This document shows, piece after piece, positions 3,818 to 19,587 of a stretch of DNA of 19,587 nucleotides. The first letter of the stretch is position 1; each line of letters begins with the position of its first letter. The translations under genes and the position numbers were made by a program. Source of the stretch: a virus (Duplodnaviria > Heunggongvirae > Uroviricota > Caudoviricetes); the IMG/VR virus record IMGVR_UViG_2563366928_000013. One strand, written 5' to 3'. The notes beneath the pieces are model-generated. The model worked only from the letters and a program-made list of their open reading frames with translations. It was not told the DNA's origin and did no database searches.

Positions 3818-4878
3818 CCGTCCAGAAGAAGATATTTTCACTGGCTGGTATGTCGCCAAAATCCAGCAATATGACAGCAAAGTCAGGCATTAATACAGCA
3901 GATACAAGCAAAGTTTGTCATTTGCTGGTGGTAGGAGCGGATGCCTTAACCATGTCAGAAATTACGGTCGATGGTGTTAGCGTTGAGAAGGTCAGCGGCT
4001 GCGCCAGAGAATTTCTGGTCGTAGATGGCTTTCTCTTCTCGCGTAGTGACTCCACAAAAACCTTCGTCCATGCGCGTGACGTTAACGAAATGAGCGCGAT
4101 GTATTGTGCATCTGGTTCTTCCAATAGTGAGTTTTCGGAGTCCATAAAAAAGAGCTTGCCGTTATGCGGCAACACGGTTTATGGTTATAAGGCACCTCAT
4201 AAAACGGGTGCCGGGATTGGCGTCCTGAAAATTCGAAAGGCGACATATGACGCGCCGAGCGTCTTTTTTTATGTCGTAGGTCTGACTCACCCATTTTTTG
4301 GGCGTTGGTGTATAATCCAGCGCCTTTGTCAATCAATGGTGGCTCAGGCGGGGGCTTCTTCGGAAGCGCCGGTATCCTTCAGAGCCGGTTACGCCAACCC
4401 TGTCTGGGCTACCACCAGCGAAATTGGCGTTTCCGGTGGTAGCGTAACCCGCTATCTGAAGGAGGCTGCCACATGCTGGCTACTACCCCTACCCAAAAAC
4501 CGCAATTTATCTGGATTATCGCCGCAGTTCGCCGCGATTGCCCGACAATTACCGCCAAAATTCATCATATTGCTGCCGAGTCTGAACGCGATGCTCGCCG
4601 TTCTCTGGTGCACGATCACATCTGCTTTTTTGCTGGTCGTATCCGCATGGAGGTGGCACATGATTAAAACCTACGATGTGCATATGGACCCCCTCGAACG
4701 CACAAGCCAGATCATCACACTGACAGAAGTGATTAACGACATTCTGGTGAGCAACTCTCCCTTACGAGACGAAAGACTGAAGGCGTTACTCGCGATATTG
4801 GATCTCGCCGTTCGTGACGTTCATTTCCTGCTGGAAGGTGGCGAAATGCCAGTAAAAACGGGGGCAACCAATGAATAA
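3811..4878 (+). CDS. long open frame (355 codons) of uncertain validity; may be a real gene or a read-through across separate units
   Basis: A 356-codon stop-free frame is statistically unlikely by chance. Against it: a terminator-like hairpin plus T7 at 4249-4270 and a TATAAT at 4311-4316 sit inside it, and a strong GGAGGTG RBS precedes an internal ATG at 4660. Confidence 0.3.
4249..4270 (+). terminator. candidate intrinsic terminator (5-bp GC stem, 5-nt loop, T7 run)
   Basis: GACGC-GCCGA-GCGTC followed by TTTTTTT, read directly from the sequence. Confidence 0.35.
4473..4667 (+). CDS. small hypothetical protein, 64 aa; alternative to the long 3811 frame
   Basis: GGAGG at 4461-4465 with 7-nt spacing to the ATG; stop overlaps the ATG at 4660 of the next small ORF. 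Could be spurious. Confidence 0.3.
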   Translation: MLATTPTQKPQFIWIIAAVRRDCPTITAKIHHIAAESERDARRSLVHDHICFFAGRIRMEVAHD

Positions 4879-13881: not shown

Positions 13882-14238
13882 TCAATCTTTATTCTTTGAA
13901 ATAGAGTCATTGATCTTTTCGAAACACCAATGAAATCCACAAAAGAGAGCTACACCAATATAACAATACAAAACTATCAACCACCTTTCAGTGTCCGAAG
14001 GGTAAAAAACATCAATTATATAAGCAACACCAATTGGTATTAATGCTAGTAATAACATCGACATAGGACGTACAAACTTCTGAACTATATCAATTTTATA
14101 GAACCACAAGGCGGTATGTTTAATGATATAAGTAAAGATGGCTGCGCCAATAATGGCAAAAAACACCATCGATAAGGTCGGGTATAACTTTGCGACAATT
14201 AAACCCAACAAAATAATTATAACTGCCTGCCCCCTCAC
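13882..14238 (-). CDS. small hydrophobic membrane protein, 118 aa, about 3-4 predicted TM helices
   Basis: GTG start with AAGGGGG RBS on the minus strand; hydrophobic runs IIILLGLIV, VFFAIIGAAIFTYII, LLLALIPIGVAYII, IVLYCYIGVALF. Convergent with the 705-aa gene, 19-bp gap. Confidence 0.5.
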   Translation of the reverse strand: MRGQAVIIILLGLIVAKLYPTLSMVFFAIIGAAIFTYIIKHTALWFYKIDIVQKFVRPMSMLLLALIPIGVAYIIDVFYPSDTERWLIVLYCYIGVALFCGFHWCFEKINDSISKNKD

Positions 14239-14353
14239 ACCAACCCCCTTTAGCGTTGTTTAGAATGGCAATCATCATATATCCAAGACATGGCATTTGG
14301 TACATAGCTTGGGTCGGGATTTCAAATCCGCCCCCAGTTGATGGGGCCGTTAC

Positions 14354-14727
14354 AGTACGCGCATATCCGCTTTATGTGAAACAGGAAGATTTTTCTGATA
14401 TCACTGCCACAGCAAAACACCAATTTCGTGACCAGTACGCGCGCGAGGGGTATCAGTTGCAAAAAGTTTTGCAACTACGTCCGACCAGTACGCGCACGAT
14501 GGAGGGGAGTACCATGAAACTGTTCTCTACACGAGACAGAGTGGTGGTGATGTGTTGATTATCGGCGTATATGCGCACAGGACGCGCTATGACGATGTTT
14601 TATGCGGGTACACCAATCACATGTATCTGGTGTGATAAATCGCGTTACATGACCTCTCTGTTGTGCTGGTGGTTATCACGACGTTCTGAATCTGGCCTTT
14701 GCCTGATATTTTGCGACAAGTACGCGC
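14354..14727 (+). repeat. array of AGTACGCGC-core direct repeats (14354, 14434, 14487, 14719) with an embedded 20-bp palindrome (14456-14475) and a second repeated motif ATTATCGG..GCGTAT (14558, 14741)
   Basis: Exact 9-mer four times on one strand within about 375 bp; extended motif GAC(C/A)AGTACGCGC(G/A)CG. Lies between the membrane gene and Abi_2; local GC is higher than the flanks. Confidence 0.5.
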
Positions 14728-15107
14728 GCGTAGCATCGAAATTATCGGATGGCGTATGCTGCTGGCAATATGAAGACCGATAGTATTAACCGAAAAGCGA
14801 TTAAGGAGTGCCAACTTTTCAGTAGAGAAACTAGACAGCATAGGAAAATGTAGAAATTACCCAATTAATAGGTAAAAGTTATTGACACAGCCTGTAGTGG
14901 ATAACGATATGAATAAAAACCACATATAGTGGTTTTTCGTGAGTGATGATAGTACCTATGTTAGTTTCCTAAGTAACTGTGCATTGACATGTGGATAACT
15001 TCGGATAGAGTTACAGGCAACCGAGCCCGATCCTCTGTTTCTCCGCCGCCGATTTCAGGCATGTGAGTTTCACGGTCGGGCCTTTTATTATCTTTTGTTT
15101 CGCCACT

Positions 15108-16085
15108 ATGATTGCCGCAAAGCCTCATAAGGACTATCACGAATTGCTAGGATTGCTACTTGAACGTGGCATGATTATCAATGATCGAAATCGTGCGATA
15201 CGTAAGCTGTCGCAGGTTGGATATTATCGATTGTCAGGTTTTTGGTACCCATCAAGAATTATTGCGACAACAGATAAAGGTCTTTCGTACAGAACAGACC
15301 GATTTCTTACTGGTACCAGTTTCGAGAAGACGTACGATCTATATCTTTTTGACAAAAAACTGCGTCTTTTGATGATTGATGCTATCGAAAGAATAGAGAT
15401 TCATGTTCGTTCAGTCATCGCGCATGAGGTTGGTCGCAATGATCCACTTGCCTACATGTCATCAAAATACATTAATCCAAAATTCTCATCTGCCTTCGAG
15501 CATTGGGTGTATAAGCAAAAAGTAAAATTAGACGAAAGCAGAGATGACTGTATTGAATGGCATCGAAGCCAAGGCAAGGAGATTCCATTTTGGGTGGCGG
15601 TGGAGACCTGGGATTTTGGTCAGATGTCTAAATATTATGCGATGCTTAATGGTCATATGCAGGGGAAAATTATACGTCGTTTTGGCATTGATAATAAGCA
15701 GACATTTGCAAAATGGTTGAAGTGCCTTAATCTCATAAGGAATCGTTGCGCTCACCATTCCAGAATATGGAATAGAAAGCATCCCCGAGTTCCAGTACCG
15801 GATAATGAATACTTTGACGGACTTAATCTCCATCCAGAGAGTTGCGAGAGGATTTTTAGCGCGATCTGTATTATCTGGTACTTAGTTAAACGACTTGGTC
15901 CGGGATCAACATGGCTTCGGCAAATTGCAGACCTTATTGACTCTAAACCAAATGTTCCCGGATGTGGATATGATTCAATGGGTTTACCTGCTAAAGGATT
16001 CCCACGAGAGAGATTCTCTCAGGACTTAGGTTTTGTTATCGCCGACAACGACCCTGTAGCTGAAGGGCGGAAAGGGAGCGATTGA
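15108..16085 (+). CDS. Abi_2-family abortive-infection protein (AbiD/AbiF-like), about 325 aa
   Basis: Motifs LSQVGYYRLSGFWYP, IERIEIHVRSVIAHE and NLIRNRCAHHSRIWNR match the Abi_2 family as recalled. ATG at 15108 preferred over the ORF-track GTG at 15063; no clear SD at either. Confidence 0.55.
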   Translation: MIAAKPHKDYHELLGLLLERGMIINDRNRAIRKLSQVGYYRLSGFWYPSRIIATTDKGLSYRTDRFLTGTSFEKTYDLYLFDKKLRLLMIDAIERIEIHVRSVIAHEVGRNDPLAYMSSKYINPKFSSAFEHWVYKQKVKLDESRDDCIEWHRSQGKEIPFWVAVETWDFGQMSKYYAMLNGHMQGKIIRRFGIDNKQTFAKWLKCLNLIRNRCAHHSRIWNRKHPRVPVPDNEYFDGLNLHPESCERIFSAICIIWYLVKRLGPGSTWLRQIADLIDSKPNVPGCGYDSMGLPAKGFPRERFSQDLGFVIADNDPVAEGRKGSD

Positions 16086-16114
16086 GCGATAAATATCATT
16101 TATACACTGATCAA

Positions 16115-16555
16115 TTACTGAAGCAGCGTATTGATTCTTTTAATATTGTTACCCTGACGCTTCCACGCGCTGTAAATGTCTTTATCCCACGCTTTACCAG
16201 CTTTTGTTTGGTAGCCTGCTTCATTGAGCCGTTCAGCTATCACACGCCCATTATCAAATCCCTGTCGGATGGTATCGGCAATGATCTTTATAACTGCCGT
16301 TTCGTTATATGGCTTTGGTGGGGTGTTCGGCTTTCCGGCAATAAGCGATGCTGCGGCTTTTTCCATGCGCTCCACCAGCCCAAGCATTCGTGAATCAATA
16401 GACTTTTCCGGCTGTCCCAGCTTCATGCGAATCGCATCAACAAGCCAGGAGGTTTTATCCCCTCCAGAAGCGAGAACAGACCGATTAAACTCATCCTGCA
16501 ATTCAGATGGGATGCGGAACGCGATCAGATTAGATTTGCTCATTGCAAAGACCAT
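16115..16555 (-). CDS. putative DNA-binding protein, 146 aa: RHH-like N-terminus and recombinase-domain-like C-terminal segment
   Basis: N-terminus SKSNLIAFRIPSELQDEFNRS is strand-helix like; C-terminus VIAERLNEAGYQTKAGKAWDKDIYSAWKRQ resembles the IA..LN..G..T..G..W pattern of recombinase DNA-binding domains. Convergent with Abi_2, 29-bp gap. Confidence 0.45.
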   Translation of the reverse strand: MVFAMSKSNLIAFRIPSELQDEFNRSVLASGGDKTSWLVDAIRMKLGQPEKSIDSRMLGLVERMEKAAASLIAGKPNTPPKPYNETAVIKIIADTIRQGFDNGRVIAERLNEAGYQTKAGKAWDKDIYSAWKRQGNNIKRINTLLQ

Positions 16556-16657: not shown

Positions 16658-16778
16658 GTTGGTTCAGAGCTGGGCTGTGTTGGTTCAAAATGAGTTGATG
16701 TTGGTTCAATATTTTAGAAAAAACACAATAAAAACAACGCTCTTTACAAATTGAACCAACTGAACCAACTGAACCAAC
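16658..16778. promoter_or_regulatory. operator-like iteron array: GTTGGTTCA at 16658, 16679, 16700 (21-bp phasing) and three tandem reverse-complement copies TGAACCAAC at 16752-16778
   Basis: Exact repeats read from the sequence, in the divergent intergenic region between the 146-aa gene and the PerC-like gene. Confidence 0.55.
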
Positions 16779-17235: not shown

Positions 17236-17664
17236 CGAAAGAATCAATGGGTTAGTCCATCGTGCAAATTTGCACCCTGCCAGCCAACGCAATTTCTCGT
17301 TGGCGAAAATATCAGGTATTTACTGAACGAACGGTCTACCAGTCTGTTCAGTTACCAGTTGCATATGGCTGTTTCATGTGAGAACGGAGGTTTTTTCGGA
17401 CATCACTATTGGGTACAGCAATTTCACGAGCAATACGCGCGCGCAGGACAACAAGCCTGAACATGGTTACACACCTCGATCGTGAGGGATGTAGGCAATG
17501 GCTTCTGACCAAAGCACCCGAAAAAACCGTGTACATAAGGGTGTACATAATCAAAAATCGCATTAGGAAGAAACCAGCTACAATGCGGCATTGAAGCCAA
17601 TACTCTACAAACAGATTCAACATTGAATAACTCGTAACGCCAATTCTTACTTTTCAGCCTTCAC

Positions 17665-17829: not shown

Positions 17830-19050
17830 TCAGTACGCCATATTCAGTTTCCCATAGTGGAACATAACTCCCAGTTTAAAGCGTTCCCGGTTTCGGTATC
17901 CCCTGGCCTTTATCCTCAGCAGTCTGATCTTGCTGTTCAGCGCCTCCGCATTTCCATTCGAGACGCGATGACGCATTGCATTCAGTATTCCGTATAACCG
18001 TTTTTTAATGGTTTTCGCTGCGTTTTTCATCATCGGCACATCACATTCAGACGCCAGCGATATCCACTGCAACCAGTCATTCCTGCGTTCTGTGCTCCAG
18101 GGGCGATCCCAGATATTTTTTGCCAGCTCTTTCAGTGTCCAGCACTGGCTTGTCTGTTGCATCTGTTCCCGCAACCACATCAGCTTTTCCTGCCGGGACT
18201 CAGTCATCCATTTGTCGCTGTACTGCCACAGGAAGCGGGTACCTTTGGCCTGACGACGACTTTCAACAGGGAGGTGCGGATGTTCATTCTGGCGGGTTTT
18301 ATCAACCACTTCGCCCAGTTGCTTCGCCACATGGAAGCGATCGAAGGCGATTTTCTCGACCGCATTGGGTAAATGGATACGCGCTGCTCTTATATAGCCC
18401 GCATTCATGTCCATCGACAGTGTTTTGATGGCCAACAACTGACTGTCAGTAAGCGAACGGAGATAGCTGGCAAGACTCTCTGTGCCACGATCATCGGTTA
18501 ATGCCAGTGCCCGCCCGTCGCGATCAGATACCACGGTTATATACCTATGCCCTTTTTTAAAGGCGACTTCGTCTACATTCATATGACGCACTGATAAAGG
18601 CTTTTTAATCCGCGACAGGCCTCGCTTAACCGCGCGGGTCATGATGCCGTCAACGGCATTCCAGCTAAGTTTAAGTTGTTTTCTGACCGCATCAACGGTG
18701 CTGATTTTAAGCCATGAGAGCACGAACGATTCGAACAGCAGAGTGTACCGACTGCCGGAACCTGCCCACGGTACAGGCAGAGTCTGGCAGCCATGCTCCG
18801 GGCACATAACGCGGGGAACATCGGCTTCTACTAATGTCATGAACTGGCAGGTATCAAGGTGGCGCCATTTACGATGTCGGTGATCGTGAACAGAACAGGA
18901 TTTCCTGCAGGTCGGACAGGTTAACTGAGTATTTTCAGCAATTCCGACTGTAACAGTAACGGAACCTGCATTTTCATCGAGGGTAAGGGATTTAACCTGC
19001 CATGGTGCAGTCAGGTTAAGGATATGGGCATAGAGGGATTTTTCGTCCAT
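17830..19050 (-). CDS. ISL3-family transposase, 406 aa
   Basis: N-terminal zinc-finger region CPTCRKSCSVHDHRHRKWRHLDTCQFMTLVEADVPRVMCPEHGCQTLPVPWA and overall size fit the ISL3 family as recalled. IS boundaries and terminal inverted repeats were not resolved. Confidence 0.7.
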   Translation of the reverse strand: MDEKSLYAHILNLTAPWQVKSLTLDENAGSVTVTVGIAENTQLTCPTCRKSCSVHDHRHRKWRHLDTCQFMTLVEADVPRVMCPEHGCQTLPVPWAGSGSRYTLLFESFVLSWLKISTVDAVRKQLKLSWNAVDGIMTRAVKRGLSRIKKPLSVRHMNVDEVAFKKGHRYITVVSDRDGRALALTDDRGTESLASYLRSLTDSQLLAIKTLSMDMNAGYIRAARIHLPNAVEKIAFDRFHVAKQLGEVVDKTRQNEHPHLPVESRRQAKGTRFLWQYSDKWMTESRQEKLMWLREQMQQTSQCWTLKELAKNIWDRPWSTERRNDWLQWISLASECDVPMMKNAAKTIKKRLYGILNAMRHRVSNGNAEALNSKIRLLRIKARGYRNRERFKLGVMFHYGKLNMAY

Positions 19051-19068
19051 ATAATTTCATTCTGAAGC

Positions 19069-19587
19069 TTACTTTAAACTGATATTATTATTTTTTGCCC
19101 ACTTTCTTAATCTTCCATTAGCGTTGGCGTAAGGCGAAGATGTGTTAAATGAGATCATTCTCCCCATCGTCCATTTTGTGTACCATGGTCTTCCATACAA
19201 AATATCATCGGTACGATCATTAATAAGGTTCACAATCTCATTTTTTACAGTCTGAAGTTCAGCTACTAACAACTCATAACTTAACTCACTGTAATCTGAG
19301 TAAAATTTTTGAGCAAGAAGGCCAAGCTGATTCCATTTATAGCCAGTTTCCGGAAAATCGACAGGCAGACCTTTAGCATCAGAAGCGATCCACTTTACAA
19401 CAAGAGCATTCCATCCAAGCAGATACGAAACGAGATCACGAACACTCATCTCCGTTCCTTTGGCGTGTCCGTCCATTGATTTATCTGAAGTAATTTCTGG
19501 TGGGATTGTGTTGAGGTAACTAATTAATTTACTAAAATTTTTATCAATAGCTAAAAGCAGTTCAGCTTTTGTTTGCGGCACACTCAT
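19069..19587 (-). CDS. ClbS/DfsB-like (DUF1706) protein, 172 aa; start codon at the last window bases
   Basis: Pattern GHAKGT...VSYLLGWNALVVKW...KWNQLGLLAQKFYSDY...YGRPWYTKWTMGRMISFNTSSPYANANGRLRKW matches my recollection of ClbS-like proteins. Its stop lies only 18 bp from the transposase start. Confidence 0.55.
   Translation of the reverse strand: MSVPQTKAELLLAIDKNFSKLISYLNTIPPEITSDKSMDGHAKGTEMSVRDLVSYLLGWNALVVKWIASDAKGLPVDFPETGYKWNQLGLLAQKFYSDYSELSYELLVAELQTVKNEIVNLINDRTDDILYGRPWYTKWTMGRMISFNTSSPYANANGRLRKWAKNNNISLK

Follow-up and report, generated by a model that had tools for sequence, protein, structure and literature searches.

The window, the whole stretch of DNA that was analysed, is a 19,587-nucleotide virus record (IMG/VR record IMGVR_UViG_2563366928_000013; Caudoviricetes). 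It carries an Abi_2 gene, abiF, which an approximately 870-bp spacer (14239-15107) separates from a minus-strand open reading frame (ORF) for a small membrane protein; both flanking genes are as described in an earlier note on this DNA. On its similarities, the Abi_2 gene encodes a predicted RNase toxin of the AbiF type and is cargo of a phage-parasitic island, and a conserved structured RNA is located directly upstream of it, on the same strand. Judged by gene order and identity, the window is a phage-inducible chromosomal island (PICI), with yicC and dinD on either side of the insertion, of the type of EcCIMP1, a 20-kb Escherichia coli PICI that is induced and transferred by the P22-like phage vB_EcoP_Kapi1 (PMC11773190). 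The spacer is, from the distribution of its homology, the junction of two unrelated modules, the island backbone and the AbiF cassette. We consider it probable (roughly 0.8) that the locus joins an EcCIMP1-type island backbone to a self-contained AbiF/RNA unit, that is, a type III toxin-antitoxin system acting in abortive infection. The AbiF part of this reading is carried by protein homology, an intact catalytic motif, conservation and covariation of the RNA, conservation of its promoter, and linkage of the RNA to the gene. Coordinates of all features are listed in Table 1.

AbiF and the RNA upstream of its gene

The protein was assigned to Pfam Abi_2 (PF07751; E 2.3e-52, 178 bits against a cut-off of 25.6), to AbiD by PADLOC (E 6e-58), and to PHROG 2158 (E 1.4e-56). 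It is homologous to PbAbiF (PDB 8VZ6) over its full length (residues 4-301; E 3.9e-36), with an identity of about 30-35% as estimated by eye from the alignment. The catalytic RNRCAH of the predicted HEPN RNase is aligned with RNSCCH of PbAbiF; PMC12373285 cites the R210A+H215A variant of PbAbiF as inactive. The start codon at 15108 (ATG) is the PGAP call and is consistent with the PbAbiF alignment; many Pseudomonas AbiF homologues have a TTG start after GGACAUGGAAG.

The RNA of the window is composed of a 5' CAAC, an 8-bp basal stem (15025-15032 paired with 15074-15081), an unpaired CUC, an apical helix, and a U-rich tail. The same motif precedes nearly all abiF genes in a set of 80 homologous loci (39-68% protein identity, one genome per species; Enterobacterales, Pseudomonas, Vibrio, Pasteurellaceae, Desulfobacterota, and cyanobacteria), at 13-69 nt, mostly 20-40 nt, from the start codon. 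Its parts are arranged in the order CAAY.G.; 8-bp G+C-rich stem; C-Y-C; U-G opening a variable apical helix; closing A; 3' stem arm; CUUCUUGUUU.

Covariation was tested on a MAFFT alignment of 75 distinct sequences. Pairing is present in 91.5% of pair cells, against 30-44% when the partners are slid by 1-3 columns, and changes on both sides are found in 15 of the 17 pairs (shuffle mean 10.7); these values were reached in 0 of 500 shuffles. The same fold was obtained independently with RNAalifold. A covariance model built here from the RNA alignment (R1) has a single match in the window, at 15015-15095 (51.6 bits), and one match of 46-58 bits, in the right place, in each of the seven Enterobacterales loci outside the model-building set (7/7); no significant R1 match was found in E. 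coli loci with other cargo. The clade of the window has a longer apical part with a covarying tip. In a second E. coli AbiF allele occupying the same slot (protein 51% identical), the fold is kept with a different interior, and the basal stem has a compensatory A-U to G-C change.

Two variants of this arrangement were encountered. A Proteus locus (Logan SRR26679162_34; L173 1-2472) has two tandem Abi_2 genes, the RNA motif being located ahead of the second and the first being cut by the locus end. Phage-like human-gut contigs named 'Bacteriophage sp.' (L089 525-562; L090 535-572) have Abi_2 homologues of 30-35% identity and a short form of the RNA motif, for instance GGCCGCCC-CCUCUG-UUGCC-UCU-GGCAU-CAAG-GGACGGCC, with a shape intermediate between the proteobacterial form and Rfam RF03085.

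The sigma-70 promoter ahead of the RNA places the predicted transcription start near 15018. A promoter with at least 9 of 12 positions matched is present in 81 of 88 homologous loci and in 3 of 86 control windows, and in 78 of the 81 promoter-bearing loci the -10 hexamer ends 12-14 nt ahead of the basal stem. The U-rich tail after the RNA is conserved; the RNA hairpin was not called in a terminator scan, its loop being longer than the pattern of the scan. Further upstream, the hairpin at 14915-14937 looks like a two-way terminator that would insulate the cassette. Neither the conserved hairpin (15025-15081) nor the promoter had been flagged in the earlier note, in which a structured RNA partner was among the proposals for the spacer. 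Such an RNA is present, but at 15018-15095 and not in the repeat-rich stretch to which it had been ascribed.

Some further signatures were seen around the promoter. Two copies of TTGACA with (T)GTGGATAAC after it are spaced 94 bp apart (14882-14905 and 14984-14999), the upstream TTGACA copy preceding the hairpin at 14915-14937; no such duplication was seen in those loci from other genera whose upstream sequence was inspected (e.g., L008-L010). Between the -35 and -10 hexamers of the promoter, TGTGGATAA at 14990 agrees perfectly with a DnaA box.

Relation to known AbiF RNAs and type III systems

Weinberg et al. described the abiF RNA motif (Rfam RF03085) in 2017. That the RNA serves as antitoxin to AbiF was demonstrated in 2025, for PbAbiF/AbiFr (Zilberzwige-Tal et al., Cell 2025; PDB 8VZ6) and for AbiFCd/RCd22, where RCd22 works in cis through premature termination (PMC12373285). 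An RNA partner of the Abi_2 family, which had been thought new, therefore has precedents, and the AbiF cassette is a structural variant of a published RNA-antitoxin system, not a new principle.

PbAbiF/AbiFr (Prevotellaceae) resembles the window in the full-length toxin homology and the HEPN motif (R-phi-x-x-x-H) given above; in a single structured RNA directly upstream on the same strand; and, within that RNA, in CA.UAG at the 5' end, in CCCG pairing with CGGG in the basal stem, in the elements CCUCU and CAA(A)U or UAYG, and in a tail rich in U ahead of the start codon. The window-type RNA differs in an extra apical helix, of 9 bp in most proteobacteria and longer and two-step in the clade of the window, and in the position of C-Y-C, which is located in an internal loop, whereas that of PbAbiFr is in the terminal loop. 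The PbAbiF locus was recovered from metagenomes at 100% identity, with no match in IMG/VR, and the RNA upstream of PbAbiF, ACCCGCCAAGCCUCUCAACGAUGCUCAAAUGUGCGGGU, equals the RF03085 consensus. In 11 of 13 loci of the PbAbiFr type, R1 has a weak match at the corresponding position.

AbiFCd/RCd22 (Clostridioides difficile phi027 prophage; PMC12373285) has in common with the window a promoter, a short RNA, and abiF on a mobile element, as well as an RNA proposed to act both in cis (termination) and in trans (binding). It differs in having two tandem RF03085 motifs and a separate terminator, compared with one motif in the window, of which the basal stem and U-tract are themselves terminator-like; the AbiFCd-type protein is about 29% identical (tblastn to phiC2). 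RF03085 itself agrees with the RNA of the window in lying upstream of Abi_2 genes, in the shape of the hairpin, and in a number of sequence signatures, and differs in helix arrangement. ToxIN/AbiQ is similar in having an RNA antitoxin upstream of an endoribonuclease toxin, a terminator between the two, and a role in abortive infection; its toxin fold is unrelated (ToxN, not HEPN), and ToxI consists of tandem 36-nt repeats processed by the toxin, in contrast to the single hairpin of the window, which is not part of a tandem array.

Several results weigh against the proposed AbiF/RNA unit. The RF03085 model (gathering threshold 37 bits), which scored phiC2 RCd22 at 37.6 bits as a positive control, gave no match in 14150-15250 or in 15005-15110 (106 nt) even with E values up to 10 allowed, and at gathering score it matched 0 of 20 homologous loci. 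R1 in turn gave the PbAbiFr type only 11-14.5 bits, with 14.5 bits for PbAbiFr itself. In view of this low R1 score and the RF03085 miss, homology of the RNA of the window to the abiF RNA is suggested, not shown. The single-sequence fold of the copy in the window is not exceptional (z = -1.66), so that the case for the RNA is built on the comparative data. Finally, no recognisable Shine-Dalgarno sequence was found ahead of the abiF ATG (15082-15110), and the closest clade is seemingly alike. We interpret the RNA as a structurally divergent variant into which an apical helix has been inserted, and place it outside RF03085.

If this is correct, the RNA-antitoxin principle of Prevotellaceae and C. 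difficile AbiF would extend to a large clade, mostly Proteobacteria and Desulfobacterota, with some cyanobacteria and gut-phage contigs. Because the Rfam model misses the window-type RNA, annotation pipelines can be expected to label such loci as a single-gene "Abi family protein"; the alignment and R1 could seed a new or broadened RNA family. The variants also form a natural series for asking how the AbiF RNA was remodelled toward Cas13 CRISPR RNAs (crRNAs).

The spacer as a junction of two modules

A blastn search of the spacer against 5,426 complete E. coli genomes returned 549 records, in only 128 of which at least 80% of the query is covered; the remaining matches end at query position 501, 537, 557, 562, or 799. 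Homology of the window with cargo-swapped copies ends at 14739, 14795, or 14800 on the left and returns at 16145 on the right, which assigns 14239 to about 14740-14800 to the backbone and 14801-16144 to the cargo cassette. In sampled E. coli loci, the slot after the backbone contains the second AbiF allele, ImmA/IrrE together with one small ORF, an HTH gene of small size, or small hypothetical ORFs; AbiF with its RNA is one of several cargos that replace each other at a defined place in EcCIMP1-type islands. At least two RTACGCGC within 1 kb upstream were found in 0 of 86 Abi_2 loci of other bacteria (outside E. coli). By this distribution, the stretch 14239-14800 is unrelated to the Abi_2 system.

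The backbone stretch is regarded as non-coding because 1-nt indels are present at four places among its copies, with stop codons appearing. The ORFs at 14265-14558 and 14571-14783 were rejected as present-day genes: they belong to no Pfam family, and their frames are broken by the indels. Their homologues are limited to ORF calls in E. coli and Salmonella that are nearly identical and 58-134 aa long, among which no Pfam family related to terminase was found. Conservation of the stretch (93-99%) is no higher than that of the neighbouring genes and is on its own uninformative on function. Permissive Rfam scans of the spacer gave chance-level matches only; blastn of the spacer gave nothing among phages and one match in the plasmid collection, to a chromosome-sized E. 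coli record. A pattern scan of IMG/VR for two spaced repeats returned 70 loci, 6 of them real, all near-identical E. coli islands.

Table 1 Features of the window from the membrane-protein ORF to the fifth repeat copy. Positions are those of the whole stretch; aa, amino acids; ORF, open reading frame.
Feature	Position	Strand	Remarks
Small membrane-protein ORF, 118 aa	13882..14238	-	ORF call and hydrophobic translation; directly after gp16-like injection gene
Repeat-rich non-coding backbone of EcCIMP1-type PICI, left flank of variable cargo slot (assigned from homology distribution)	14239..14800		
Repeat copy 1	14341..14365	+	Weakest match to extended motif
P22-pac-like sequence, GAAGATTTTTCTGATATCACTG (P22, GAAGATTTATCTGAAGTCGTTA)	14385..14406	+	16/22 bases, 13 of the first 14
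Repeat copy 2, CAATTTCGTGACCAGTACGCGCGCG	14421..14445	+	17/20 bases equal to Kapi1/Sf6 terS segment
Inverted repeat, 10+10 nt with 2-nt spacer, AGTTGCAAAA-AG-TTTTGCAACT	14455..14476		Between copies 2 and 3
Repeat copy 3	14474..14498	+	Core variable among copies: GCGCAC, GCACAC, or TGCACAC
Repeat copy 4, ATATTTTGCGACAAGTACGCGCGCG	14706..14730	+	Core TACGCGCGCGTA, 12-bp palindrome
AbiF cargo cassette (upstream region, RNA gene, abiF)	14801..16144	+	Homology boundaries in cargo-swapped copies
Terminator-like hairpin, AAAAACCAC-N5-GTGGTTTTT	14915..14937		A-run before, T-run after; folding z = -3.3
Putative sigma-70 promoter of RNA and abiF, TTGACA-16-TAGAGT	14984..15011	+	Conserved in homologous loci
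AbiFr-like structured non-coding RNA, about 75 nt	15018..15095	+	Predicted antitoxin and attenuator
abiF (Abi_2/AbiD family), 325 aa	15108..16085	+	Predicted HEPN RNase toxin
HEPN catalytic motif R211-N-R-C-A-H216 (R-phi-x-x-x-H)	15738..15755	+	Invariant in 30 homologues
Backbone ORF, 146 aa, right flank of cargo slot	16115..16555	-	Found with every cargo type
Repeat copy 5, extended, CAATTTCACGAGCAATACGCGCGCG	17419..17443	+	Downstream of PerC

Repeats of the backbone and the small terminase of the helper phage

Four exact copies of AGTACGCGC are located at 14354, 14434, 14487, and 14719, all on the plus strand, compared with a mean of 0.12 and a maximum of 2 in mononucleotide shuffles of the window; a degenerate copy is present at 14579. 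They are embedded in an extended motif of about 20-25 nt, (A/T)TTT(C/T)G.GAC(A/C)AGTACGCGCGCG. The four direct copies within an extended motif given in the earlier note are thus confirmed, and so is its duplicated ATTATCGG..GCGTAT motif (about 14559 and about 14741). The perfect 20-bp palindrome that it placed at 14456-14475 is indeed bracketed by copies 2 and 3, but has a 2-nt central spacer, extends over 14455-14476, and is imperfect through its centre.

Most of the element variants examined, EcCIMP1 among them, have a repeat at the position of copy 5, which is missing from L165. In L165 and L166 the stretch between copies 2 and 3 has been lost together with the inverted repeat, which is therefore dispensable in some copies. 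Several rearrangement junctions fall on repeat copies: the left boundary of L163 is immediately before copy 2, and the cargo boundary of L007 and L126 is 12 nt past copy 4.

A profile of seven repeat copies scored 22.3 bits against the Kapi1 genome at 18872-18896, inside the small terminase gene terS, the next site having 12.8 bits; the maximum in 60 shuffled genomes was 17.1 bits, and the best site in P22 had 12.8 bits. An exact 14-mer of copy 4, GCGACAAGTACGCG, equals Kapi1 18879-18892, also in terS, and is among the two best short matches of 14239-14880 to Kapi1; terS of phage Sf6 is identical over the segment (about 162-186). At the protein level, the two best tblastn matches of Kapi1 TerS to the repeat region, on copies 2 and 4, both take in TerS residues 51-73, and translated copy 2, AKHQ-FRDQYAR, is aligned with TerS AKHEDFRDKYAK. 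The Sf6 pac site reportedly lies in the portion of gene 1 coding for the DNA-binding domain (Leavitt et al. 2013). The P22 pac site, annotated at NC_002371 positions 4-25, lies inside terS, and no packaging site is named in the description of EcCIMP1 (PMC11773190).

With P22-like pac sites located inside terS and no packaging site named for EcCIMP1, the AGTACGCGC-centred repeats are tentatively read, at somewhat below even odds, as multi-copy relics or mimics of the pac site of the helper small terminase (Kapi1/Sf6 type). A different explanation, likewise possible and short of an even chance, is that they are not a packaging signal and instead are binding sites of an island-encoded regulator, or the remains of a decayed, functionless small-terminase pseudogene. 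The palindromic core of copy 4 would suit a regulator; five copies bracket an accessory module (cargo, 146-aa ORF, PerC), the junctions at repeat copies are as for plain recombination substrates, conservation does not exceed that of neighbouring coding DNA, and the protein-level similarity to TerS is compatible with a gene relic. However, 4-5 copies of the same segment of about 20 nt, with the rest of the gene gone, would be unexpected in a terminase relic, and in the helper genome the motif has no outstanding match apart from the one in terS.

Should the pac reading be true, a PICI family that lacks a terminase would be packaged by P22-like phages with different terS alleles, via pac sequences beside the cargo slot. 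The repeats are a concrete candidate for how islands without a terminase gene are recognised by the packaging motor of the helper. The P22-type pac-like sequence at 14385-14406 is a weaker lead than the terS match of Kapi1. It satisfies 16 of 17 positions of the published pseudo-pac pattern (PMC10996546), is the sole pac-like match in the window (0.04 expected), and is present in EcCIMP1 too; the translation around it has a weak likeness to P22 gp3 residues 78-106 (one 29-aa tblastn match, E 0.007 in a tiny search space).

Two other roles were considered for the repeats. A replication origin was judged unlikely, as islands with a DUF927-type primase keep the same region and a better origin-like block of iterons is located at 16658-16778; integrase arm-type sites were judged unlikely as well, copies 1-4 being about 3 kb from the island end.

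Proposed mechanism

Transcription, termination, RNA binding, toxicity, and the trigger are inferred by analogy. The sigma-70 promoter would fire with a start at about 15018, and the first 75 nt or so would fold into the conserved hairpin. By analogy with PbAbiF/AbiFr and AbiFCd/RCd22, the RNA would end most transcripts at the U-tract before abiF (cis attenuator) and would bind the AbiF HEPN dimer, blocking its RNase site (trans antitoxin); phage infection or loss of the RNA would then free the RNase and lead to cell arrest. The unpaired C-Y-C may, as a speculation, include the nucleotides that reach the active site.

It is unlikely that the hairpin at 15025-15081 and its U-tract are an attenuator or terminator of the abiF leader only, with no antitoxin role. 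A G+C-rich 8-bp stem followed by CUUUUAUUAUCUUUU would fit such an element, and RCd22, too, acts in cis by premature termination (PMC12373285), but sequence conservation across phyla extends to unpaired nucleotides and to the flanks (CAAY, C-Y-C, an invariant U-A pair, CUUCUUGUUU). A plain terminator does not require such conservation, which counts against this explanation, as do the change of the hairpin interior along with the protein allele and the binding and neutralisation of the toxin by both experimentally studied AbiF RNAs.

Very improbable is the proposal of the earlier note that the repeat-rich stretch 14239-14800 is an operator array, leader-peptide attenuator, or structured RNA working with Abi_2: its repeats are real, far above chance, and adjoin abiF, and local folding is seen (z = -2.7 for 14440-14500), but the stretch is found without Abi_2 in EcCIMP1 and in most of the 549 E. 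coli records (ImmA/IrrE, HTH, or small-ORF cargo), its repeats are absent from the 86 Abi_2 loci elsewhere, the terminator-like hairpin and the conserved promoter of abiF itself intervene, and no significant Rfam or R1 match is located there. The upstream regions of other Abi_2 loci, of which a covariance analysis had been suggested as a check, yield a conserved covarying hairpin before abiF but no such repeats. As to a leader peptide, the 14-codon mini-ORF at 14514-14558 behind GGAGGGGAG exists, but as the in-frame tail of a longer ORF (14256/14265-14558); its ATG at 14514 is ATA in 4 of 7 aligned copies, in-frame changes and frame-breaking 1-nt indels are found among them, and it is located about 550 nt upstream of abiF.

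The island and its other features

From left to right, the island is composed of an integrase (split by IS3), an HTH gene, an antirepressor, Ash, the C4 and isrK RNAs, a P4-alpha-like primase, homologues of P22 gp20 and gp16, the membrane ORF, the spacer, Abi_2, the 146-aa ORF, and PerC. EcCIMP1 has the same order of integrase, HTH gene, antirepressor, Ash, primase, DUF2824 and ejection proteins, membrane ORF, repeat region, cargo, and PerC, with common blocks of 88-96% DNA identity, the repeat region included (95.9%); it is by this synteny and sequence identity that the window belongs to the EcCIMP1-type PICIs. The two elements differ in integration site (tRNA-Thr in MP1, yicC-dinD in the window), in part in primase type, in cargo (a small HTH gene in EcCIMP1, AbiF in the window), and in the disruption of the integrase of the window by IS3. 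Kapi1 is the closest phage match of the ejection protein of the window (74.6%).

The IS3-family element that splits the integrase (L161 8327-10931) may have rendered this copy of the island immobile, and it is probably no longer mobile. At the right end (17830-19587), between the island and dinD, an ISEc53 transposase gene is located with a neighbouring ClbS/DfsB gene. No tRNA gene was found with ARAGORN, and the GGATTTCAAATCC palindrome was rejected on this ground as a tRNA remnant.

The 118-aa membrane ORF occupies the position of sieA in P22 (order 7-20-16-sieA(-)). This is a second variable slot, in which unrelated small membrane proteins of 118, 129, or 204 aa are found (window, L002, L003, L165); the 118-aa and 129-aa variants have the first 20 residues and the upstream DNA in common and nothing more, and the 204-aa protein of other copies has a weak precomputed Pfam SIEA mark. 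Homology of the 118-aa protein to SieA was rejected (P22 SieA, BLASTP E 1.9; no Pfam SIEA match), genomic position alone being in agreement. The 146-aa ORF on the other side of the cargo matched no informative family in Pfam, PHROG, and PADLOC searches.

The only matches in an Rfam scan of the whole window at gathering score are isrK (67.9 bits; 4192-4269) and C4 antisense RNA (79.9 bits; 4332-4419), side by side upstream of the Ash-family gene and far from the spacer. The pair points to a putative RNA-based immunity module of the P1/P7/P4 type in the island.

Between the 146-aa ORF and PerC, the block at 16658-16778 has three direct copies of GTTGGTTCA (16658, 16679, 16700) and three inverted copies of TGAACCAAC (16752, 16761, 16770), bordering a 43-bp A+T-rich stretch. 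By this layout it resembles iteron-type origins such as P4 ori/crr; EcCIMP1 has the block a second time, inverted, beside the primase gene.

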